Origin: a virus
Lineage: Duplodnaviria; Caudoviricetes
Virus record (IMG/VR): IMGVR_UViG_3300029183_000200
Location: 1 to 40,749 of that record
Strand: one strand, 5' to 3'
Length of the DNA stretch: 40,749 nucleotides
Numbering within the stretch: position 1 is the stretch's first letter; the number at the start of each line of letters is the position of its first letter. The notes beneath the pieces are model-generated. The model had not been told where the DNA came from. It saw nothing but the letters and a program-made list of their open reading frames with translations, and ran no database searches. This document shows, piece after piece, positions 307 to 40,749 of this stretch. The position numbers and the translations under genes were made by a program.

Positions 307-756
307 ATGACCACATCTCATTCTATACCGCCCAGACTCTTCCGATATGTTGAGGTCAGCCTGAACGGGTGCCTGACGTGGAAAGGCAGGTCGCTAACTT
401 CCGGCTATGGCCGTTTCTACCACAAAGGCAAGCGTTGGAGAGCGCACAGGTTTTTCTACGAGCGACTGGTCGGCCCTATCCCTGATAGCCTAGAACTCGA
501 TCACCTGTGCCGTAACAGACTCTGTGTCAACCATAGACATCTTGAAGCGGTAACACACGCAGAAAATGTACGCAGAGGGGAAGCAGGCAAGCATTCTCCT
601 GAGAAACCACCTCAAACTCATTGCAAGCGGGGCCATGAAATGGCAGGCAGGAACTTAGTCATCATGCCTGCCGTAAGCAGAGGCCGGAGGTACACTCGGC
701 GCAAATGTCGAGCATGCCACAACTTAAGAGACCGCCTCTACAGCCGCCGGAGGTAA
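307..756 (+). CDS. HNH endonuclease (HNH_3/homing type) with C-terminal Cys/His domain
   Basis: GYGRF, AHR, LDHLCRNRLCVNHRHLEAVTHAEN, THCKRGH, CRAC; ATG at 307 preferred over GTG at 265, which lies inside a hairpin. Confidence 0.9.
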   Translation: MTTSHSIPPRLFRYVEVSLNGCLTWKGRSLTSGYGRFYHKGKRWRAHRFFYERLVGPIPDSLELDHLCRNRLCVNHRHLEAVTHAENVRRGEAGKHSPEKPPQTHCKRGHEMAGRNLVIMPAVSRGRRYTRRKCRACHNLRDRLYSRRR

Positions 757-768
757 ACTACATATAAC

Positions 769-875
769 GGTGTTTTGGCGGCGGCGTTAAATCCCGAAGC
801 CGTGAGAGAGCCGCCTGGTTGCAACTGGGCAGAGCGCAAAATGCAGGACAGGGTATTCCTGCCCGCCACAGCACC
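769..875 (+). ncRNA. tRNA-like (non-canonical) structured RNA A
   Basis: Closing stem 769-781/863-875 abuts a T-arm-like stem GCAGGA(843-848)/TCCTGC(857-862); two inner hairpins; no canonical TTCG loop. Confidence 0.45.
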
Positions 876-884
876 TATTTAGCA

Positions 885-964
885 GTAGCCGGGGTGAAAA
901 GGCGATCCGGCCGCGCCTAAGACTCCAAGAGCAATAAACGGGAGCGTTAGCCCCGGCTACTCCA
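885..964 (+). ncRNA. structured RNA B ending in T-CCA
   Basis: Perfect 10-bp stem GTAGCCGGGG/CCCCGGCTAC followed by TCCA; inner hairpins GGCG/CGCC and CTCC/GGAG. Confidence 0.5.
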
Positions 965-1043
965 TTCCAAACTAGAACCCTGTTCGGAACAGCATTCCAA
1001 AGCTACTGGACAGTTTCAAGTGTTTCGATGTCGCTGTCAGGGT

Positions 1044-1610
1044 TTACTGTGCAGCGATCAACGCTTCCAGTTCAGCAATACGAGCGTTCAGTTCGTCTAT
1101 CAGTAGCAGAGAGTTGAACTGCGCCTCGATCACAGCGTCTAGTGTCAACCTTTGGGCATCAGCAGCCTCTTGCATATCACTAGAGATCGCAGCTGTGGAT
1201 GCCTGGTGACTGTTGAAGATCCCCTGAAGCTGGTCAATCCCAGAGTTCATAGACGTAACAGCAGAGTCCATCTGTGTGACACGAGTCCCGGAATCAGTTC
1301 CCCATTGCTGCAGCGACTGGTTCAATGAACTGTTGAGGGCCTGGTTCTCTGCAAGCCACACTTCAAAGTCCAGCCAGCTCTGAGCATTAGTTGTCTGAAG
1401 CAGTTCGTTTTGTGCATTGATCGCCCTAGTACGTTCGTGCTCTGCAGTTATCTCGTTGATCCACAACTGCCAGTCAAACGGTTGTCCGGTACGAGGATCT
1501 ATCAAGCCGGGATCAGGAGTAGGGGTGGAGACTTGCGCTCTTGCCTGCGGAGTTGTGCAGGACACAGTAGCTACAGCGAGGATGAATGTAAGAAGTATCA
1601 GGTATCTCAT
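1044..1610 (-). CDS. secreted or lipid-anchored coiled-coil protein (188 aa)
   Basis: GGGAG RBS then MRYLILLTFILAVATVS-C signal/lipobox-like N-terminus; long heptad-rich helical C-terminal half. Confidence 0.7.
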   Translation of the reverse strand: MRYLILLTFILAVATVSCTTPQARAQVSTPTPDPGLIDPRTGQPFDWQLWINEITAEHERTRAINAQNELLQTTNAQSWLDFEVWLAENQALNSSLNQSLQQWGTDSGTRVTQMDSAVTSMNSGIDQLQGIFNSHQASTAAISSDMQEAADAQRLTLDAVIEAQFNSLLLIDELNARIAELEALIAAQ

Positions 1611-1726
1611 GATGTTTGTGCTCCCGGCCAGAACGGTTACGCCGGATTGTCTGACCGGGAACCCCAACCTATTTAGCTACACCAGCGTTAAGTAACTTCC
1701 TCATTGCCTTGTATTAGCCGACAGAA

Positions 1727-1825
1727 TCAGCTACCGCGTGTCATCGTTGACCGCGGAACATTAACCCGCGTTGCAAACAAGTACGCCAACCCGATAAAAC
1801 CCGTGAGAAGAATCAACCGTTTCAT
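1727..1825 (-). CDS. 32-aa single-TM peptide coupled to the tatC stop
   Basis: MKRLILLTGFIGLAYLFATRVNVPRSTMTRGS*; ATGA overlap with tatC stop; below the ORF-track cutoff. Confidence 0.55.
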   Translation of the reverse strand: MKRLILLTGFIGLAYLFATRVNVPRSTMTRGS

Positions 1826-2718
1826 ACCCGCCTGAACACCTTTCGTATCACAGCTTTAGGACGACTCAAAATCCATCTTACAAGACGCCCCAGACTTCTC
1901 ATCCACAGGTAGTCTCCCTCTGACGGATGCGCTGCCCACGCAAGGAACAACCCGACCTGGTACAGCAAGAGCATCGGCCCAGCAACAAACGCCCATGTCC
2001 ACGGATCTGAGGTCGGCGTGATAATCCCAGCAAAGATCATCATTGCTATGGTGGCGTAGACCGACAGGCTCTTCATCTTCCGGTACGACAAAATGTGCAT
2101 CCGTGAGAGCAGGTACATCACAAGCGGGATCTGGAAGATAACGCCCAGCCAGAACATCAGCTTAAGGATCAGTTCGATGTATTGAGGGAGCGTAATCAGC
2201 GCAACCGCCACACCGTCTGCGAAGTTCAGCAGAAACCGCAGGCTGACCTCAAGCAATATGTAGTAGGCGAACGCCGCTCCAGCGATGAAGAGAACGATGG
2301 ACGTTGGCAGGAAGACCAGCAAGAACCGCTGGTACTTCGGAGGCAGCGTAGGCCGGAAGATGTAGTACAGGCCGAACACAGCAAACGGTGCTGCAGTCAC
2401 AAACCCGCCCAACACGCCGACATTGAGCGTTGTAGCTAGAGGATCGGTCGGTGCTGTAAAAACCGGCGCACCATCAAACGGAGAGAGCCTGCCGTCAGCC
2501 GGAGCCAGCAGCCACCTGAATACATCCTTGTGCTTTATCAGCGTGAACGCACCGCCGGCAAAACCAACCACCGTCACCACTACCAGAACTCGAACTATGC
2601 GCCGCCCGAACCGGAGGAATACATCGCGGTCAGGAAGCCACCCAAAGAGATAGACTATGAGCCGGTTTACAAGCCTGCTGAGAGCATTCCAGTCACCGGG
2701 TTCGGGCGCAGTAACCAC
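1822..2718 (-). CDS. tatC: TatC-family membrane protein (divergent)
   Basis: About six TM segments, PVFTAPTD loop, LFIAGAAFAYYIL, GVIFQIPLV, AGIITPTSDP, PMLLLYQVG match the TatC pattern. Confidence 0.92.
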   Translation of the reverse strand: MVTAPEPGDWNALSRLVNRLIVYLFGWLPDRDVFLRFGRRIVRVLVVVTVVGFAGGAFTLIKHKDVFRWLLAPADGRLSPFDGAPVFTAPTDPLATTLNVGVLGGFVTAAPFAVFGLYYIFRPTLPPKYQRFLLVFLPTSIVLFIAGAAFAYYILLEVSLRFLLNFADGVAVALITLPQYIELILKLMFWLGVIFQIPLVMYLLSRMHILSYRKMKSLSVYATIAMMIFAGIITPTSDPWTWAFVAGPMLLLYQVGLFLAWAAHPSEGDYLWMRSLGRLVRWILSRPKAVIRKVFRRV

Positions 2719-2825
2719 TACGAGTTCTTATCGCTGCCCCTGCTGAACAGGTTCTCGATCTTTTTCCAGACAACCAGGATAACTACCAGCGCAGCAATGC
2801 CGCCAACAATGTATGCCCACTCCAT
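2718..2825 (-). CDS. 35-aa TM plus amphipathic-helix peptide (TatA-like topology)
   Basis: AAGGA RBS; MEWAYIVGGIAALVVILVVWKKIENLFSRGSDKNS*; TAG overlaps the tatC GTG. Confidence 0.7.
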   Translation of the reverse strand: MEWAYIVGGIAALVVILVVWKKIENLFSRGSDKNS

Positions 2826-2845
2826 AAAGAGTTCCTTTCAGAGAT

Positions 2846-3096
2846 TCAACCCAGAATCTTCCCTAAAGCAGCGACACGCGCTTGCATCGCTTTAGCTTTC
2901 TTTTTGAGGTTATACATGACCATCCACGTACCCGACACAGACACGGTGACGACAAATACGACGGTCTCTACGACCGCGGTAACTTCTTCGCTAAAAAAGA
3001 GGGAGCCGCCTGAACGATCTTTACCGCTCCCACGCCCAGTCCAATAGAGACCAGTGCGTACCAGCCCAACCAGCTAACAGGCCCTAGAACAATCAT
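2846..3096 (-). CDS. membrane protein: 42 aa (3096-2968) or ~83-aa two-TM product via -1 frameshift; holin-like
   Basis: ATGA coupling to the upstream gene; in-phase T TTT TTA; the -1 frame gives a second TM and a basic tail. Confidence 0.6.
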
Positions 3097-3416
3097 TTCT
3101 TTTTCTTCCCAACTATGCCGTCGAAGACCGCATTCACTCCGTCACGCGCCCCTTTGCCGTAGGTGCGAATGGCCTCCCATGCAGGCCCCATCAAGACTTC
3201 TTTGGCACGGTCTCGTATCTCAATCACATTGTCCCTGATCTCTTCAGGGGTCGGCGGCTTAATAGAGGACTCATCTTCGCCCTCTTCTTCTGGCTCAGGT
3301 TCCGGTTCGTTGACCTCAGACTTCAGCTCTGCTGGTTCTTGAGGCTCAGGCTCACCGACTACAAGACGAGGCCCGGTGTTCTCAGGTTCTGGATTCTCTT
3401 CTCTGTGCTGTTCCAT
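3093..3416 (-). CDS. hypothetical protein, Glu/Pro-rich N-terminus and amphipathic basic C-terminus
   Basis: ORF tightly packed in the late operon. Confidence 0.75.
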   Translation of the reverse strand: MEQHREENPEPENTGPRLVVGEPEPQEPAELKSEVNEPEPEPEEEGEDESSIKPPTPEEIRDNVIEIRDRAKEVLMGPAWEAIRTYGKGARDGVNAVFDGIVGKKKK

Positions 3417-3418
3417 AG

Positions 3419-3625
3419 CTAGTCCGCAGTTGGGTCTGTGCGATCAATGTCCGCTCGTTGTGACTCACGATACTTTAGCACGATAGCCCTTACCTGCCTT
3501 CTCACAAACTGCTTGAAGTCATCTGCCGAAGCTGGCGAGTCAAGGCCCATGTGCTGCTGCACCGCAGCCCTGACCTCTGCCACATAAGCATCGGGAATTG
3601 TTATCGAAACGGTCTGATCTGCCAT
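3419..3625 (-). CDS. small hypothetical protein following the fibre gene
   Basis: Operon packing, GGAGG RBS. Confidence 0.7.
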   Translation of the reverse strand: MADQTVSITIPDAYVAEVRAAVQQHMGLDSPASADDFKQFVRRQVRAIVLKYRESQRADIDRTDPTAD

Positions 3626-5002
3626 CTACTTACCCTCCGGTAACGCTTCAAGTTTCTGCTCAAGAGCCATGATCCGCTTTGCCTGCTGCCAGATCGCACC
3701 CGACTGTGCTCTGAGCAGTTGAGAGACATTCAGCAACCCGCCCTCGCTTCTGGGCGTCGAATAGATACCAGCCTCGATCAATGTCCGCTCGTTGTACTTC
3801 ACAAACTCGTCCCATTCGTCACGGATAATCCCTTTACGATTAGAGGTAAGTTCAACCGTGCGAAGTAGCATTGCGTCATCGAAGGAGTCCAGTGCGGTAT
3901 TACCGTCTGTGTCTGACGCATGGATGTCTCCGTTGCCTTTCACAAGGAAGCGCATTGTTCCGCTATTCCGCATCCCAAAGGCGTTACCTGCATTAGCCAC
4001 CGTTGTGATATTTGTCCCGCCATCAGTCACCTGCGAGTTCAACTCTGTCACAGCACGGGATGAGGTCGTGTCTGTAGTGTCGGCTGCTTCTCCAAGTCTT
4101 CCGTTCAAGACAAGAGCACCGTTCGCCCCACCATCCGCATCCTTGTAACCACGAATGCTAAGGCCACCAGATGTCCCCTCAGTCTTTACAAACTCAAAAT
4201 AGGTGTCCGCTTCCGCAAGGCTGGTCATCGCGTGCGAAACATCAGATGATTTACCTGCAAGAATTTGATCGTCACTTGCTCCCTGGTTAAGTGTGAGGCC
4301 AACTGTCATATCGGCATTTGTGGTCTCGCCAATAAGCACCAGACCGTTACTGAACAACGTGTCACCAGATCCCACCACTTGAGGATCAAAGATCAGGTTT
4401 GTGCCGTCGTACTGGATAGAAGCGTCACCGCCAGCACCCAGTATCAATGACGTGTCAGCAGGAATAGTGACCGTCCCAGCCGAGCCGTCCAGTCTCAGGT
4501 ACTCAGTCAGTGAACCGTTGGTTAGCGCAGAAAAGGCAAGGTCTCCATCCTGAGTCCCGCCTGATGCAACCGTAGTCGCTTGCCATGTGAGTCTTGCCTG
4601 TTCGTCCTGATTGCCTGCACTGTCAGATAGCTTCAGAGAGATGTAAGCAAGGTCGTCGTCTGCAGGAGTGGCGCGGTCTCCCTCGAAAGTAGCAACCTCA
4701 ACTGAGGCAACGTCTTCGGAACGGGTGACGATCAACGCCTCAAGGTTCGCTGCGCTCTCGTTCAGGTTCATGTGCGAGACCTGGAACCTGTCTCTGGCCC
4801 GAAGTCTTACGATGTCTGAACCGTTGGTTATCCGAACATCGAACTGTCCGAGCGTCGAATGAGAGATCGCCCAGTTACCTGAAGAATCCGTAGTGGTTGA
4901 CGCACGCTGCGGAGTTGTCGTGTCGATGTCGAACAGCTCTACGGTAGCGTCTTCAATCGCCGAACCCGTGTCATCGACCACCGATCCCCTGAACTCTGGC
5001 AT
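3626..5002 (-). CDS. tail fibre-like protein
   Basis: N-terminal Ig/carboxypeptidase-regulatory-like domain, Gly/Thr/Asp-rich beta strands, C-terminal coiled-coil chaperone-like end (GAIWQ..LEQKLEAL). Confidence 0.7.
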   Translation of the reverse strand: MPEFRGSVVDDTGSAIEDATVELFDIDTTTPQRASTTTDSSGNWAISHSTLGQFDVRITNGSDIVRLRARDRFQVSHMNLNESAANLEALIVTRSEDVASVEVATFEGDRATPADDDLAYISLKLSDSAGNQDEQARLTWQATTVASGGTQDGDLAFSALTNGSLTEYLRLDGSAGTVTIPADTSLILGAGGDASIQYDGTNLIFDPQVVGSGDTLFSNGLVLIGETTNADMTVGLTLNQGASDDQILAGKSSDVSHAMTSLAEADTYFEFVKTEGTSGGLSIRGYKDADGGANGALVLNGRLGEAADTTDTTSSRAVTELNSQVTDGGTNITTVANAGNAFGMRNSGTMRFLVKGNGDIHASDTDGNTALDSFDDAMLLRTVELTSNRKGIIRDEWDEFVKYNERTLIEAGIYSTPRSEGGLLNVSQLLRAQSGAIWQQAKRIMALEQKLEALPEGK

Positions 5003-5004
5003 AT

Positions 5005-5280
5005 CTATCCTCCGATAACCGATCTGAGCGCGGATGAAGCGTCGTCCAGCGCGTCATTCTCTGAGATGAATTGTATATCCGATGCTACCGCTTCTAATGG
5101 ATTGACCTCTCGCCCTACTGCTATCGCTGTTCTGGGGAACGCCACAAGGAAACTCACTCCCGTACCTGCAGGGTTGAACAGGAAATCTCTTGGCTCCCGC
5201 CGACCTGTACGGTGCAGTGCCTGGTAGACGGCATACTCCGCATCAGAACCACCTCTGTCTGTAAACTGCTCAGTAGCCAC
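5005..5280 (-). CDS. small protein with degenerate DUF559/Vsr-like nuclease pattern
   Basis: GSDAEYAVYQAL..DF..VSFL...AIAV pattern. Confidence 0.4.
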   Translation of the reverse strand: MATEQFTDRGGSDAEYAVYQALHRTGRREPRDFLFNPAGTGVSFLVAFPRTAIAVGREVNPLEAVASDIQFISENDALDDASSALRSVIGG

Positions 5281-7181
5281 TACTCAACCGCCCTGTCTGT
5301 ATCAGTGGCCTCTGGCTCGGCAAACGTGACCGTCACAGATCCGTAATCTGTCTGTCCTGATTCCTCTGAAGTCTGAAGGTCTAACGTGTCCATCAGGTAG
5401 ACCTGCTCCCCAGACGAGTCAGCGCGGTACGCCACTTCGATCAGCTTCTTCTTGTTCAAGGAAGTGCGAAGGTTCTTGAACTGGGTGACTGGCGGCACAC
5501 CTGCCACGGGCTTTGTTAAGTCTAGGCTGGCACGTATGCCGTAGAGCGTGGTGATCCGCGGTCTCCATGTAAGCGTCAGCTTGATTAGCTGCGGAGTGTT
5601 CGTAGTCGTTGTGCCGCGGGCAAGCGTAATTTTCCACTTCCATGCCCTGAACGAGACTCCCTGCTTGTTCACATCGTTCGGCAGGCGGTACTTCTTTTCG
5701 CCGCCTTCGTCTTTTGTCGCTATCGTGGTGAACGACTCAACGTAATCGGTGGCGTACTCGATCTTCACCGTCTCATCAGTCGTAGGGTTCAGCGTCTCGA
5801 CAATGGCGGAGAGGGCTAGCTTCTGGTGGTTGTGCATGTTCATGTCGAACCACGGCGACTCCAAAACAGCCTCGTCTCCGAACTCTGAATCCGTCACCTG
5901 TAGCGGGTTCACAACGTCCACAGGAAGCTGCATGTAGTAGACACGCTGGTTAGCCGCCCACCACAGCCTGTAAGAGTTGTACGCGTTACCTACGACTCCT
6001 GCGGTAATCCCACGGGCAGACTCACCTGAGAGCCACTTGAACTCCCAGCCACGTTCGTTCCAGCCCAGTATCGACGAGAACCCTGTCTGTGACCCGAAGG
6101 TGACTCCGTGATGAAACCTGACACCACGGGATGCGCGCGTAGAGAGCGAGGAAACAGACTGTGCGGTGGAGGCATCCAGAAGTGCCAGCAAATCGTTGTG
6201 CGAGCCTATCAGGGACGTTATTACGCCCCTTTTGTCAGAAGGCATACCGTGGTCAAGGTCTGGGCCAACTGTCTGAACTACGGTCTGGTCTGAGCCTGCC
6301 TGGAATGAGTAGACCGCATTACCTGCTGATGTGAAGATCCTGCCACGCCATACTTCCGCACCCTTACCGCCGTCTGGGTGGACAGGGAGTTGAAGGTCAG
6401 TCGGCACAAACCTTGCGTTCTCTTCGTCATGAACAAGGATGCCCTGATTCGTGACTGCATAGATGTGCTCGTTACGGTCTGGGCCGCGAGCGACAAGTAG
6501 TTTGGTGACGCTACCCGGTGGCAGTTGAAGCTGAGCATCAGCCGTCCATGTCTCTGTCAGGTCGTCCGTGTAGTACATCTGGCCTGTATTGGTGATGCCC
6601 CAAAGAAGGTCTGCCCAGAAGACAACGTACTTGATTGCCTGCCCGGTGTTCTCTGCCCACGTAGACGAGTTGGTTGCGTAGTCAACATCTGTGCCGTTGG
6701 CGATCACCAGCGTCTCTGTGCCGTTCAGCAGTCCGACAGCAGAATCAGTAGCGGATGCCGCTAGCATGCGTACGCTCGAACCCCATGAATCTGTCGAAGA
6801 GTCGTACACATGAACAGCGGTTCCGTAGGTGGCGAAGACCTCGTCTTGAAAGATGGTCAGTGTGTCAATATTTGTCGCAGTTCCAGCCGCAGTAAGGACT
6901 GCCCTGCGTGGCAGGATGAACGTGTCCTTGTACCGTAGTTGTCCGGTTGACCACCACACGCGCCGAACATCGTCGGGTATGTCTCCGCGCTCGACGCCGA
7001 TACCGTCGCGGAAGTCGCCCAAAGAGAACTCCGAAGCGAGGGGGTTGGACGAGTCTGAGAAGTCTCCTATTGTGACCTTGCCGGGCTGCCTTGAGGCGAG
7101 GAAGTTCTGAACGCGCCCGTTCAGCCGGTACGTCTTCCGGTCGATGCGGATCAGGTTCTCTTCTATCGGCTGAGAGGTCAT
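5280..7181 (-). CDS. tail nozzle/tubular protein B-like (beta-propeller)
   Basis: 633 aa, Trp/Asp-rich beta repeats, located downstream of the adaptor. Confidence 0.6.
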   Translation of the reverse strand: MTSQPIEENLIRIDRKTYRLNGRVQNFLASRQPGKVTIGDFSDSSNPLASEFSLGDFRDGIGVERGDIPDDVRRVWWSTGQLRYKDTFILPRRAVLTAAGTATNIDTLTIFQDEVFATYGTAVHVYDSSTDSWGSSVRMLAASATDSAVGLLNGTETLVIANGTDVDYATNSSTWAENTGQAIKYVVFWADLLWGITNTGQMYYTDDLTETWTADAQLQLPPGSVTKLLVARGPDRNEHIYAVTNQGILVHDEENARFVPTDLQLPVHPDGGKGAEVWRGRIFTSAGNAVYSFQAGSDQTVVQTVGPDLDHGMPSDKRGVITSLIGSHNDLLALLDASTAQSVSSLSTRASRGVRFHHGVTFGSQTGFSSILGWNERGWEFKWLSGESARGITAGVVGNAYNSYRLWWAANQRVYYMQLPVDVVNPLQVTDSEFGDEAVLESPWFDMNMHNHQKLALSAIVETLNPTTDETVKIEYATDYVESFTTIATKDEGGEKKYRLPNDVNKQGVSFRAWKWKITLARGTTTTNTPQLIKLTLTWRPRITTLYGIRASLDLTKPVAGVPPVTQFKNLRTSLNKKKLIEVAYRADSSGEQVYLMDTLDLQTSEESGQTDYGSVTVTFAEPEATDTDRAVE

Positions 7182-10808: not shown

Positions 10809-12076
10809 TAAGCATCATCTACCCATCTGATTCCGGTCGGGCTGTGTATCCGCCTGCGCCAGTCAATTGCCAACTGCATCAGCCTGTCTGCCTCGATGTG
10901 AGCAGCCTCACGGTTAGAAGCGTTCCTGTCACCTCGCGCACGCATAAGCTGGGCAGTCGCATAGTTGATGATGTACTCAGGGTCTACGTCGCAGGAATCC
11001 GTGTCAGAAGCTAACTCTGTTGGCTTCTTACGTCCTGTAATCCTGAGAAGTGCGTGCCGTGCCTCCCATCGAGCAGAACGCTCAAAGACAAGTTCACGGG
11101 AATCCTTGTCGATATTCCAGAAGTTACGGTGAATGGGAGTCCATACCTCTGAGTTGTCCAGAGTCCCTTCAATACCGTCTATCCAGATGGTCGCTGCACC
11201 GATGTCAGTCGTGTACTTGATGCCGACTGAGATGATGGCGGAATCAGATTCAGGATTCGCAAGCGCAACCCGGCAGCGAGTCCACTCGCCAGCGGTCAAC
11301 GCAGGGAAGTCCAGAAGTTCTGTCTCCGTTCCTGCGCTCGCAGTTGTAGAGAGGATTAGTTGAAGGTCACCAGCAGTAGTTGTAACAGTAGACTTCGCCC
11401 ACCATTCCACATGCGTCATACCTGAAAGGTCTACGGTGCTGACGTTCTCAGATGCAATGATGTCGTTTGCAGCAAGCCCCGCAGCCAGGACAAACTTGTT
11501 CGAGCCAGAGCCTTCTCGGTAGTCCTCGTCGTCCAGAGATGCCGTAACGTCCGTGTCCACCAGTTCAGACCAGACCGCATCAGCGTTGTCTATGTCCTCG
11601 CGGTCGTACCTGTCCCTGTAATCAACCCTGCGTATGCCGACAACAGCGGTTGGTATCGAGTAGGTTGTCAACTTCGTTGAGGTATGGATGGAGGTGTCTG
11701 TGCTAGGTGGCGATGCCTTACGAGTCACAGCGCGTATGGCTTCGTTAATCGCATCGTGAACACGAGCTGGAGGCATGTCCTCGTCCCAGAGTTCGTAGGT
11801 CACGCCAGAGGCAATCGTCGAACCCATCGCTGTTCTTAGGACACCGGTTTTCGGCCCACCTGTGAACTCTTCGACTATGCGGATAGAGCCGTCGTTATCG
11901 CCAGAGGCCTGTACGAAGTGCTTGCCGTTCGCAAATCCGTCACTGTTTGGGAGTTCCGTATCGGCGAACGAAGAGGTTGTACCCGCGGAAGTAGTCGATG
12001 ACACAACGACCGCACCTAAACGGTAGCCAATAGTCTGCCGTATCTGCTTCCTTGTCTGCGCCGCGATGACCGCCAC
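10808..12076 (-). CDS. tail adaptor/tubular protein A-like with inserted beta domain
   Basis: AINEAIR helix and C-terminal DVDPEYIINYATA helix typical of podovirus adaptors. Confidence 0.6.
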   Translation of the reverse strand: MAVIAAQTRKQIRQTIGYRLGAVVVSSTTSAGTTSSFADTELPNSDGFANGKHFVQASGDNDGSIRIVEEFTGGPKTGVLRTAMGSTIASGVTYELWDEDMPPARVHDAINEAIRAVTRKASPPSTDTSIHTSTKLTTYSIPTAVVGIRRVDYRDRYDREDIDNADAVWSELVDTDVTASLDDEDYREGSGSNKFVLAAGLAANDIIASENVSTVDLSGMTHVEWWAKSTVTTTAGDLQLILSTTASAGTETELLDFPALTAGEWTRCRVALANPESDSAIISVGIKYTTDIGAATIWIDGIEGTLDNSEVWTPIHRNFWNIDKDSRELVFERSARWEARHALLRITGRKKPTELASDTDSCDVDPEYIINYATAQLMRARGDRNASNREAAHIEADRLMQLAIDWRRRIHSPTGIRWVDDA

Positions 12077-23787: not shown

Positions 23788-25436
23788 TAGCTCGCTCGTC
23801 TCATTTCACGGATGATGTCGCGGACATCTCTGGAAGCACGGTTCCGCTTTTTCTGCTTGATCTTCGAGGACTTTCTGCCAGTAAGTGTATGCCCTAACTG
23901 GTTTATGAACAGATAGGTGAGCGCGCGCACAGCGTCACAGTATTTATCTTCGGGCGTCTTGCCTATTACCTGTCCTGTGCGGTCAGTCGCCCACCTGTAC
24001 GGATGGATCTCCCCCGAATTGGGGTGTCCTGCCGGATACGGCATCCCGCCAAATTCAGCTGCCGCGCCCATCATCGAAGGTGAGATTGCAAACACCGGCT
24101 GTCCACAATTGGAGTCTACGCAGAGGTTGAGCATCGACTGCATCCGGTAGATGCCAGGAAGGATGTTGACCTTCTCTGACATGCAGACCATACCGGTCTC
24201 TTTGCGCCAAACCTCTTTAACCGGGTCTGATGCTCCTGCATGGTACGTTCCTGCAATGTCAATAACGCCGACCTTGTGCGGATTCTTCCACCAGAACCGA
24301 CCCATTGCGATCTCGCAGATCTTCTCGTTCTTCAGTTTCGTCTCGTATATCTCGTCAATGCCCCAGAAGTGCTGTCTACCGCAGGGGAGATGCCGACGTT
24401 GCACGACCTCTACTGCATACGACGAGGGCTGGCCTGAGAAGCCGGGGTCGATGCCGATAAGCACAGGCTCTTCAGGGTTGTACTCCGCATCTTCTGGAAG
24501 GATGTGAACGGTCGGGTCGAACGTCTCGAACACCCTGCCCTTTGGCGGCGATGGAATGGCTAAGACACGTTCCTTGTACTCGTCTTCTGAGAGGTCGGCG
24601 CGCATCTGCCGTATCTCTGGGTCTCGGTCTCCCTTCTTATAGATGAAGATGTTGGAGAACGAGGGCATTGAGAACGACTTGGCGTTATCTCTTGTCTGGT
24701 TTGCAGGGAGTTGCCACTTCGAGTAGAGCGTGGGATACCAGCCTGTCGAACCCTCAAAGGTCGAGATCATGATGATCGCACCGTAGCCGGGGAAGTCAGC
24801 GCGGGCGCGGGCGACACGGGAGCGAAGCCGGGTGTACGTATCGTAGGTGCAGATTGCGGCCTCGCAGAGCAGGACGAACACCGGTGATTCCATCCTGAGC
24901 GCAGCCATGCCGTCGTCTGATGACTTGGTCTTTATCTTGAAGACGCCGCCTGGAACCTGAATGTGAATCTCGCCAGGATCTACCTTCGAGTCGGCCTTGA
25001 GAATGGTCAGGTTCTTGGTCTGGTTGAGCCACGTTTTCAGGTACTCGAACTCACGAGATGTCTGCTCGTATGATGCACCGACCAGCCATGCGACTTCGTT
25101 AGCCGCCCTGCGTGAGCCGTTTGCGTGCTCCCCGAGAAAGGCCAAAAGAATCATGTACGCCTTCATCGCGCCTGTGAATGACTTTCCTACCTGCTCGCCA
25201 CCGGCTACGAGGCATGTGAGGTGGTCGTCTTCGAGAATGTCCAGCTGGTAGTTGTACGGGTCTTGCAGAGGCTTGCCGAGTTTCTTTCCGCACACGTGGC
25301 AGTTCTCCCCTGTAGGGACGTACCCGCACTTCCGGTGTTTGACATAGTCGGACGGCTCGAAGTCGCGCCAGATGGCCTTCTGCATAGCATCAATGGGGAA
25401 CTGGTGCAGGTTCGTCCTTGTGTCTGCCGTGACCAT
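23787..25436 (-). CDS. terminase large subunit
   Basis: Walker A GGEQVGKS, Walker B VLLCEAA, coupling motif STFEG, RNase H-like IGIDPG and DKYCDAVRAL. Confidence 0.93.
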   Translation of the reverse strand: MVTADTRTNLHQFPIDAMQKAIWRDFEPSDYVKHRKCGYVPTGENCHVCGKKLGKPLQDPYNYQLDILEDDHLTCLVAGGEQVGKSFTGAMKAYMILLAFLGEHANGSRRAANEVAWLVGASYEQTSREFEYLKTWLNQTKNLTILKADSKVDPGEIHIQVPGGVFKIKTKSSDDGMAALRMESPVFVLLCEAAICTYDTYTRLRSRVARARADFPGYGAIIMISTFEGSTGWYPTLYSKWQLPANQTRDNAKSFSMPSFSNIFIYKKGDRDPEIRQMRADLSEDEYKERVLAIPSPPKGRVFETFDPTVHILPEDAEYNPEEPVLIGIDPGFSGQPSSYAVEVVQRRHLPCGRQHFWGIDEIYETKLKNEKICEIAMGRFWWKNPHKVGVIDIAGTYHAGASDPVKEVWRKETGMVCMSEKVNILPGIYRMQSMLNLCVDSNCGQPVFAISPSMMGAAAEFGGMPYPAGHPNSGEIHPYRWATDRTGQVIGKTPEDKYCDAVRALTYLFINQLGHTLTGRKSSKIKQKKRNRASRDVRDIIREMRRAS

Positions 25437-25771
25437 TAAGCGATCTCCGGTTCGATAAAGATTTCCAGCTTTTCGGCTGATGAGTTCGGATAGGTCTGGA
25501 TTGCCCCGCTTACGAACGTGACCTCAAACTCACCTTTGTACGTACCGGGAGTATCTGTGTCTCCCGAAGCCCACGTATATTTGACGATTCCAGACGCCTC
25601 CGTGACAGAGGTTACGGACTGCTCTGAGACCTTGACGACACCGCCTATGTCTGACATTGAGAACACGATGGTCGCACCGGTTACGTCTACTGCGTTATTG
25701 TCGCCGTCCTTCAGGGTTACCTGCAGGTCTGGCGAGGTATCGTTCTGCTTCATGAAAAACTGTGGCATCAC
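25436..25771 (-). CDS. BppU N-terminal-like protein (copy 3)
   Basis: MKQNDTSP..LKD..G.V.Y.W..GDTDTPG.Y.GEF.VT....TYPN. Confidence 0.75.
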   Translation of the reverse strand: MMPQFFMKQNDTSPDLQVTLKDGDNNAVDVTGATIVFSMSDIGGVVKVSEQSVTSVTEASGIVKYTWASGDTDTPGTYKGEFEVTFVSGAIQTYPNSSAEKLEIFIEPEIA

Positions 25772-26094
25772 GCGATTTCAGGCTCGATAATGACTTCAAT
25801 CTGCTTCTCTTTTGAGTTCGGGTACGAAGTAACATCTCCCGCAAGGTTCGTGACCTTAAACTCTCCGAGATAGTTACCCGGTGTGTCCGTATCTCCCGCA
25901 GCCCAGTCGTAGCGGACGGTTCCTGAAGGCCCATCGACTATCGTTGCAGCTGCGTTGAACTTCCTGTTCCCGCCAGAAGCGAGTCCAAAGAAGACGGAAA
26001 ACCCGGTAAGATTCTCGACGTTGCCCTCTCCGTCTTTCAGGACAGCCTGAATTGAAGGGGATGTGTCATTTTCCTTGATGTAGAACTTCGGCAT
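25768..26094 (-). CDS. BppU N-terminal-like protein (copy 2)
   Basis: IKENDTSP..GTVRYDWAAGDTDTPGNYLGEFKVT..SYPN. Confidence 0.75.
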   Translation of the reverse strand: MPKFYIKENDTSPSIQAVLKDGEGNVENLTGFSVFFGLASGGNRKFNAAATIVDGPSGTVRYDWAAGDTDTPGNYLGEFKVTNLAGDVTSYPNSKEKQIEVIIEPEIA

Positions 26095-26435
26095 CAGAAG
26101 ACCCTCTCTTCGACGATGACGTTCAGCTGCTCAGAGCGTGCGTTGGGCCATGTCCTGACGGTTCCATCTGAGAACGTGACCTGGAACTCTCCCTTGAACG
26201 TACCTGGTGAGGTAAGAACACCGGTCTCCCAGAAGTAACTGACGATGCCGAGAGCGGGATTAGGCACAGATGCAGGCCGGTTATTGATATTCCCGACGTT
26301 GCCTCCAATGTCAGACATGGAGAAGACGACGGTTGCATCTGTCAGGTCGATTGCGTTCTCGTCGCCGTCGAGAAGCGTGGCCTCGATAGCAGGGAGGTCG
26401 TCTGAGTCTTTTATGTAGAAGAACGATTCTGCCAT
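26094..26435 (-). CDS. BppU N-terminal-like protein (copy 1)
   Basis: IKDSDDLP..GIVSYFW..PGTFKGEFQVTF..TWPN. Confidence 0.75.
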   Translation of the reverse strand: MAESFFYIKDSDDLPAIEATLLDGDENAIDLTDATVVFSMSDIGGNVGNINNRPASVPNPALGIVSYFWETGVLTSPGTFKGEFQVTFSDGTVRTWPNARSEQLNVIVEERVF

Positions 26436-40612: not shown

Positions 40613-40749
40613 CCGCGAAGAACTAATACAACTGATGAAGGCTATCCACAGAGTCAACTCAGGTGTCAATGAAAACTGGGATCATCCAGACCCGCACATC
40701 AGAGAAACGCTCCGTGAATATATGTCTATTTGGATCGTGACTGGGAAAC
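40599..40749 (+). CDS. truncated hypothetical protein
   Basis: MPVASREELIQLMKAIHR... open to the window end. Confidence 0.5.
   Translation, partial: MPVASREELIQLMKAIHRVNSGVNENWDHPDPHIRETLREYMSIWIVTGK

Follow-up and report, generated by a model that had tools for sequence, protein, structure and literature searches.

A TatC-based gene cassette at the late-operon end of tailed phages: a candidate virion exit module in likely peptidoglycan-free Dehalococcoidia

Background

The closest described relatives of the genes treated here belong to the bacterial twin-arginine translocation (Tat) system. In the available text of PMC13323110, TatC residues E15, F94, E103 and H12 are assigned to the twin-arginine motif and T208 and Q215 to TatB E8, and the membrane is described as thinning from 38 to 26 Å around TatBC. 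Point variants that make TatA assembly cargo-independent are described in the available part of PMC10092561. The window, i.e. the whole 40,749-nucleotide (nt) virus record IMGVR_UViG_3300029183_000200 (linear, no terminal repeats found, CheckV completeness 100%), carries at 1044-3416 a series of minus-strand genes centred on a protein of the TatC family. Its conserved core is four genes, A-B-C-tatC, and the key feature of its TatC is the loss of the signal-peptide site. The cassette is real, conserved and apparently undescribed, and its function is predicted: the four genes may form a late, cargo-independent membrane-breaching module that releases virions, a reading given a probability of roughly 0.45. 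The literature, as far as its text was available, holds no description of a phage TatC or of lysis of peptidoglycan-free Dehalococcoidia (annotation tables could still mention one), and a 2026 review of Tat evolution, searched by term in its available text, gave no phage or viral TatC.

Organization of the cassette

The features of the region are as follows (aa, amino acids; ORF, open reading frame).

3093-3416, minus strand: gene A, 107 aa; soluble, with an acidic low-complexity N-terminus, an amphipathic helical C-terminus and a basic tail, without a membrane span
2968-3096, minus strand: gene B, zero frame, 42 aa (short product); one membrane helix and a basic tail
2846-2992, minus strand: gene B, -1 frame, 48 codons; a second, mildly hydrophobic helix and a basic amphipathic helix, which would complete an 83-aa product
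2992-2998, minus strand: U_UUU_UUA heptamer where gene B changes frame; probably a site of programmed -1 frameshifting or slippage
2718-2825, minus strand: gene C, 35 aa; a single membrane helix between an N-terminal Glu and a basic tail, laid out like TatA/TatB, and a likely partner of TatC
1822-2718, minus strand: TatC-fold protein, 298 aa (PF00902, E-value: 5e-41), with extra N- and C-terminal helices
1727-1825, minus strand: optional gene D, a 32-aa membrane peptide overlapping the tatC stop
1044-1610, minus strand: lipoprotein-like ORF, 188 aa from ATG or 207 aa from TTG at 1667, with a coiled-coil C-terminus
939-955, minus strand: terminator-like hairpin (consensus match only), the likely end of the late operon
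3626-5002, minus strand: tail-fibre-like gene, 458 aa, clustering with Peptidase_S74-bearing fibres of relatives

The preliminary description of this DNA had named six coupled ORFs, and all six are present on the minus strand, with TatC identified by its PF00902 match. Their stops and starts overlap or nearly abut, apart from one 120-nt gap and one 20-nt gap. The coupled series survives as a conserved unit for A-B-C-tatC; the 32-aa peptide proves optional and the lipoprotein-like ORF an orphan, and neither is part of the core. The series comes after the 458-aa tail-fibre-like gene and a 68-aa gene. Four terminator-like sites were found compared with 2.5 in shuffled sequence, and the hairpin at 939-955 is weak when taken alone.

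The integrity of this region was checked with contigs from four public runs, all from one study and one of them possibly the source of the record itself. Positions 600-5600 have zero insertions or deletions in these contigs, and a single contig bridges 1075-5600, spanning both the cassette and the tail-fibre gene; the junction between the two and the T6 run in gene B are therefore real. The earlier concern that host DNA had been misassembled onto the phage is ruled out by the contigs that bridge the junction and by 13 further viral records with the cassette. In contigs of two runs, including the run with the 1075-5600 contig, 57 bases within 1017-1075 are swapped for 278 others, a difference between strains where the lipoprotein gene ends.

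Loss of the twin-arginine pocket in the cassette TatC

The window protein is classified as a TatC-family member from its PF00902 match and its predicted six-helix TatC fold. Its structure model (predicted local distance difference test score 87) has template modelling scores by target of 0.80-0.85 to six of seven solved TatC chains, and Foldseek gives E-values of 3e-9 to 4b4a and 9e01.

Residues were tabulated for 70 cassette-type rows (some redundant, those below 190 aa dropped) and 182 other TatC rows. Positions H12, E15, F94, E103, T208, D211 and Q215 follow the E. coli numbering and were mapped by motif on L094. H12 is kept in 3/62 cassette-type rows compared with 176/178 others, E15 in 0/62 compared with 177/179, F94 in 3/70 compared with 182/182 and E103 in 8/70 compared with 177/182; the window protein has F37, R40, I120 and Y129 at these positions. 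The loop between transmembrane helices 5 and 6 (TM5-6) is retained, with T/S208 in 70/70 cassette-type rows, P209 in 70/70 and D211 in 69/70 (T234, P235 and D238 in the window). Q215 is present in 45/70 cassette-type and 121/181 other rows. The pocket region of the cassette proteins has a consistently basic surface (net charge +4.6 compared with +0.5), and their periplasmic loops are conserved. Three basal rows of the cassette clade retain H12 and F94, which suggests a stepwise loss of the twin-arginine pocket.

Because this pocket is lost, the cassette TatC is predicted not to act as a normal Tat translocase. A search for twin-arginine cargo gave one doubtful 86-aa match among 590 called phage proteins. 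Only two larger proteins with an N-terminal hydrophobic stretch occur in the first eight genomes, and no conserved exported cargo was found. The phage-built Tat-like machine suggested earlier stands as a phage-borne, Tat-derived and conserved system under purifying selection, and is not supported as a normal dedicated Tat exporter.

The cassette-type TatC proteins form one clade in a quick tree of 115 rows (Shimodaira-Hasegawa-like approximate likelihood ratio test 100) and in a careful tree of 55 rows with long branches and near-duplicates left out (100/100). The clade has a long stem (0.82) and is sister to L095 of Dehalococcoidia (97/85), in trees whose root was not inferred and whose cellular rows were picked by similarity to the query. 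The cassette TatC has a single origin next to Dehalococcoidia TatC.

Conservation and distribution

A protein search with the window TatC gave 127 matches, with 37 close relatives (at least 139 bits) ranking before named cellular TatC proteins. Scanning viral contigs with this single protein found nothing; an alignment-based scan turned up 13 contigs in IMG/VR, of which 11 include the upstream region, and further tatC loci from metagenomes and genomes are among the matches listed. The same three small genes, A, B and C, precede these tatC genes in the same order, in viral and other loci; the neighbourhood is conserved. Profiles of A, B and C, seeded from 15-17 cassette genes, match 16 non-seed loci and 0/134 ordinary tatC loci. 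Among the 11 viral loci, B is divergent in L011 and C is not detected in L006. At 50% identity, family B falls into 122 clusters. Single B proteins used as queries returned 0, 2 and 2 loci, three of them already in the set, which are too few to judge whether B occurs without tatC.

Window A scores 41.5 bits against a profile built without the window row (shuffle maximum 6.7). The 42-aa window B scores 16.1 bits against the N-terminal half of family B, its -1-frame product 21.4 bits against the C-terminal half and the read-through product (with X) 39.5 bits against the whole family; for A and for each of these B products, 0/60 shuffles score as high. Window C is assigned to family C by position and layout. 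No Pfam or PHROG family was found for gene A, no PHROG match for 10 small cassette proteins and only sub-threshold, unnamed ESM Atlas matches for A and B.

The ratio of nonsynonymous to synonymous substitution rates (dN/dS) in the pairs listed is 0-0.26 for tatC, 0.12-0.32 for A, 0.05-0.42 for B and 0.02-0.18 for C, from pairs that are more than 60% identical, are not independent of one another and come from loci other than the window. The tatC values are mostly near 0.1 and rule out decay; the gene is neither sporadic nor decaying, either of which the preliminary description would have taken as a refutation.

Look-alikes of the 32-aa peptide D follow tatC only in L002 and L006 (35 loci examined, 4 with too little flank). 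The sole match to the lipoprotein-like protein among 264 candidates is its own 98% copy, and it has no family in Pfam or PHROGs; it was rejected as a spanin-like core component since it is an orphan and the host is monoderm. Huge phages may carry tat genes; a literature search for this found no paper. INPHARED has 14 weak TatC matches with less than 30% identity, several of which are bacterial-sized records annotated with ordinary tatC, and none is cassette-like by score. A PHROGs search returned PHROG 36238, an unnamed TatC-like family. Some cassettes have additional genes: a 190-aa HNH-like gene lies between B and C at L009:8929-9501, leaving the cassette unbroken, C is present twice in L027, and L010 and L030 have a further membrane gene between A and B.

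Putative partner peptides and the likely frameshift in gene B

In family C the N-terminal Glu is near-invariant; a membrane helix follows in the layout, and most members have a glycine run. The family scores 25.3 against a host TatA/B profile (13.2 when shuffled), and the C profile gives a 79% match with host TatB, both dependent on three rows with an MGxxE start. The structure model of B is of low confidence (predicted template modelling score 0.31) and has two helices. Proteins of the gene A family have a mean net charge of -6; gene A as a TatA/B relative was rejected.

Gene B of the window is split by a -1 change at a U_UUU_UUN/T6 run, and the same change splits B in L001, L058 and L025, unlike the 22 aligned B genes that are contiguous. 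Both frames stay homologous to family B, and further half-length B matches with the same junction motif are found among database proteins. A sequencing error at the T6 run is ruled out by the same change in relatives and by the indel-free contigs. Gene B is likely to be subject to a programmed -1 frameshift or slippage. Three of the four split-B records form one clade (98/95), so the frameshift possibly has one origin kept over a long divergence. A hairpin downstream of the slip site reaches a z-score of -3.3 in L001 only and -1.2 or weaker in the other three records (-0.3 to -0.7, not significant, in the window). A degenerate DNA pattern for more frameshift sites matched 0/209 loci. In L011, a separate 36-aa membrane peptide stands at the place of the B frame change.

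The late-operon slot and its occupants

The minus strand of the window carries terminase, capsid-like and tail genes (Pfam, PHROGs). The cassette is downstream of, and co-oriented with, capsid and tail genes in the window and in 11/11 IMG/VR records with upstream sequence, which bears out the placement at the end of the late operon after the tail fibre; the strand switches within 2.7 kb in 9/11 records. The phages themselves are unlike and differ in terminase and tail type, with only two of 13 matching the window terminase and one with a tape-measure match, and their genomes have few genes in common beyond the cassette.

Lysin, holin and spanin families were not found among the 59 window ORFs (Pfam, PHROGs), in agreement with the earlier statement that no endolysin is recognizable there. 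The same families are absent from the 126, 127 and 135 cluster representatives of 13 records; these are ORFs of at least 70-80 aa chosen by codon score, in which genes at cut points may be partial, and the final 0.5-5 kb of four records lies outside the gene calling. Four of the records are rated 100% complete and contain no holin-endolysin pair, so the idea that such a pair lies outside the window did not hold. The best holin matches (Phage_holin_3_6, E-values: 0.046 and 0.18) are below the cut-off. A PHROG "endolysin" label on a G005 protein was rejected in favour of a tape-measure protein, as seven tape-measure families outrank it.

Relatives were also collected by the adaptor protein (80 of 125 fetched). 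The cassette lies inside the flank in 3 of these 80, most flanks being too short, and TatC was found in 0/28 longer adaptor-related records, of which five reach 90% completeness or more. Five complete tatC-less genomes likewise show no lysin (150 plus 3 of 159 representatives scanned, 6 short ones left out). The proposed anti-correlation of tatC with endolysins is therefore not seen, and the missing endolysin reflects the phage group and probably its host.

In tatC-less relatives, the slot contains a 52-68-aa two-helix peptide and a 310-440-aa membrane-anchored protein, found in 0/14 tatC phages, or other small hydrophobic proteins. The tatC cassette is thus one of at least three mutually exclusive slot occupants. 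The first and commonest alternative, here called the RPQ module, is an undescribed second candidate exit system. Its sites in tatC-less relatives are:

L246:9710-11510, RPQ module
L259:18307-20039, RPQ module
L265:16394-17467, RPQ module
L267:19085-20602, RPQ module
L269:17409-19309, RPQ module
L277:16569-18175, RPQ module

The two-helix peptide is the "RPQ" peptide of the name, the larger protein has a conserved Gly/Thr-rich domain, and a coiled-coil peptide with a C-terminal membrane span is often added; no Pfam family matches the module. Phages of the tatC type and of the RPQ type alike encode a 73-95-aa GxxTxxEW protein close to the slot (40% identity between the L001 and L277 copies):

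L001:11583-11804, GxxTxxEW protein
L003, about 11523-11810, GxxTxxEW protein
L277:17518-17736, GxxTxxEW protein

Host evidence

The host is likely a peptidoglycan-free member of Dehalococcoidia. The Dehalococcoidia genome G127 carries, integrated in a contig of 1.36 Mb, a relative that has six proteins in common with the window (28-45% identity):

G127:C4:783850-820000 (L316, L317), prophage near tRNA-Arg

This prophage has no tatC cassette and lies near tRNA-Arg and a gene that, from its sequence, is presumably integrase-like. It is a stronger host link than G470, the one genome out of 151 of a Dehalococcoidia order with a full cassette, which stands on a 3.5-kb contig in addition to the normal tatC of that genome; the G470 contig is a weak link. 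The cassette of L097 is on a 2.2-kb contig binned as Gemmatimonadaceae. In the G127 prophage, the slot is occupied by a coiled-coil protein of 92 aa together with a two-helix peptide of 44 aa, and two tRNA-Ile calls lie at about 791.0 and 820.9 kb.

The Dehalococcoidia host tat operon consists of an rlmD/maf-like gene, tatB and tatC with all signal residues present, and hosts retain ordinary tatA, tatB and tatC. Loss of peptidoglycan had been attributed to Dehalococcoidia as a whole; in the available text of PMC10284905 this applies to orders 10-25, including SAR202, whereas orders 1-9 keep synthesis, and the available part of PMC10444878 describes SAR202 as lacking peptidoglycan synthesis. 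A murG gene was above the cut-off in 0/15 Dehalococcoidia genomes (completeness not given; two weak sub-threshold matches), and none was found in G127.

Proposed mechanism and alternatives

In the proposed model, C (and perhaps B or host TatA) would dock on TM5-6 of the phage TatC, and the complex would make the bilayer thinner, as is described for TatBC. Lacking a signal gate, it would build up to the point of membrane failure. The two forms of B, short and long, could set the timing in the manner of holin and antiholin, and A may be a soluble regulator or scaffold. In a host that probably lacks a wall, breaching the membrane would be enough for virion exit. This lysis reading is the best supported because of the late position, the replaceability by holin-like modules, the probable absence of a wall and the predicted ungated membrane-thinning scaffold. 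Held slightly more tentatively is the wider proposal of a new class of lysis system: a captured, ungated, TatC-scaffolded and frameshift-timed rupture machine of phages of SAR202-type hosts, which would replace holin-endolysin and be interchangeable with at least two other undescribed slot modules.

Several observations weigh against the lysis reading. Its slot argument is circumstantial, small holins alone are a cheaper means of rupturing a wall-less cell, and expression and function of the cassette are both predicted from sequence. The absence of an endolysin is common to tatC-less relatives, hydrolases of new types escape Pfam, and the unannotated genes could include one for a protein that degrades the S-layer. 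The slot may also be an accessory site with lysis encoded elsewhere: in G554, one of the five complete tatC-less genomes, the last fibre gene is not followed by a membrane gene, and in L014 and L201 the cassette is behind small non-structural genes. The Tat likeness of the putative partners is limited as well. That of C to TatA/B depends on 3/21 rows with an MGxxE start and does not beat shuffles without them, the tail of B resembles the TatA/B amphipathic helix weakly, and PF02416 has no match in 25 small cassette proteins (B and C fail) or in five complete genomes. The window TatC has W242 at the Q215 position, and window C is a divergent copy with a weak match to the C profile (3.6 bits, 2/60 shuffles as high). 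The B profile matched 0/401 Dehalococcoidia genomes in a sample without a positive control, and no cassette prophage was found in a long host contig.

The same TatC could instead act on the host, the pocket-dead protein and C entering or titrating host TatABC, so that folded proteins of the envelope and of respiration are no longer exported or are exported abnormally. The gain could be superinfection exclusion, a diversion of resources or an S-layer weakened ahead of exit. A lost pocket with a kept TatA/B docking loop is a dominant-negative profile, hosts do keep ordinary tatA, tatB and tatC (G470 has both tatC types), and the available text on haloarchaeal TatCt, where pocket-dead units are proposed to pair with working TatC, offers a precedent (PMC13673990). 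Such poisoning, the main rival, is the less likely of the two readings: it needs no A and B, yet all three small genes are under selection, host takeover would be expected earlier than a gene position at the late-operon end allows, and the long divergence from host TatC (stem 0.82) argues against a fit with host subunits. Less credible again is a private exporter or insertase moving a protein without a twin-arginine signal (A, B or an unrecognized S-layer-opening enzyme), holin-like for a hidden lytic factor. The full TatC fold, conserved periplasmic loops and kept D211 would suit this role, and the basic pocket surface (+4.6 compared with +0.5) could bind the acidic A (mean -6); against it stand the lack of a conserved exported cargo, with the one doubtful match among 590 proteins, and the small number of genes that the genomes share beyond the cassette.

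At about the same low level, if anything a shade lower, is an accessory membrane module unrelated to exit. By reducing the membrane potential or otherwise changing the membrane, it would block DNA entry by other phages or damp host defence. It fits the patchy occurrence (TatC in 0/28 larger adaptor-related records), the empty slot of G554 and the other contexts in L014 and L201, but the slot nearly always has a membrane module and no other lysis candidate is recognized in complete tatC genomes. Ordinary auxiliary Tat genes boosting host export, or misjoined host DNA, are a very improbable explanation and largely refuted. Family and fold are those of TatC and the nearest relatives are host genes, but the signal-binding residues are lost, A, B and C are absent from 134/134 ordinary tatC loci, the host operon is arranged differently (rlmD/maf-like gene, tatB, tatC), and both the bridged junction and the 13 other viral records place the cassette in phages.

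Significance

Little is understood of how tailed phages leave peptidoglycan-free cells, and deep water is rich in bacteria of the SAR202 type. The cassette is a concrete, cloneable candidate exit module, and the aquatic phages that carry its TatC are a widespread group. For Tat it amounts to an experiment of nature, in which the pocket has been removed and the fold and docking loop kept across a clade, and would permit a cargo-free test of membrane thinning. If Tat poisoning were true, phages would have evolved an inhibitor of a general export pathway. Both readings tie a phage group to Dehalococcoidia and hint at further unknown membrane modules in the slot.

Other features of the genomes

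Window positions 25436-26435 encode three tandem 108-113-aa paralogues with Ig-like/BppU-N matches just upstream of the large terminase gene. The terminal sequence at 40730-40749 also occurs as loose ends in read contigs and is probably a library linker remnant. Sugar-modification clusters (epimerase, cytidylyltransferase, NeuB, SIS, methyltransferases, radical SAM) stand among virion genes at L176:3269-8954 (G007) and from L203:15530 to L204:2288 (G009), and possibly serve virion glycosylation. The 64.6-kb G011 (L182-L185) has capsid and fibre homologues twice and may be a concatemer or chimera, which makes its completeness figure doubtful.

Comparison with known systems

Lysis cassettes of the lambda S105/S107 holin/antiholin type share with the present cassette the position at the late-operon end, small membrane proteins with charged tails and two products from one gene. 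Unlike them, the cassette has no endolysin, spanin or holin-family match, it includes a six-helix scaffold, and a frameshift takes the place of the dual start. Tailed viruses of wall-less archaea likewise have only membrane and S-layer to cross; in the available text of PMC10791045 their lysis genes are not identified and no involvement of TatC is described, and the host of the cassette is bacterial. The 14-helix haloarchaeal TatCt with inactive RR sites, as described in the available part of PMC13673990, resembles the phage protein in having TatC units without F94/E103, which are proposed as structural subunits. In its cellular setting TatCt is a fusion that accompanies a working TatCo, whereas the phage TatC is a single unit of another lineage with no working TatC alongside. 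By its predicted properties, the cassette TatC does not qualify as a translocase, nor the cassette as a holin-endolysin system. Compared with the bacterial Tat core, the cassette lacks the twin-arginine pocket, a PF02416 match and recognized twin-arginine cargo, and has in addition genes A and B, extra terminal helices and a phage late-operon site; it shares with that core the TatC fold, the TM5-6 loop and, directly ahead of tatC, a gene for a small single-span protein with an N-terminal Glu, the putative partner.

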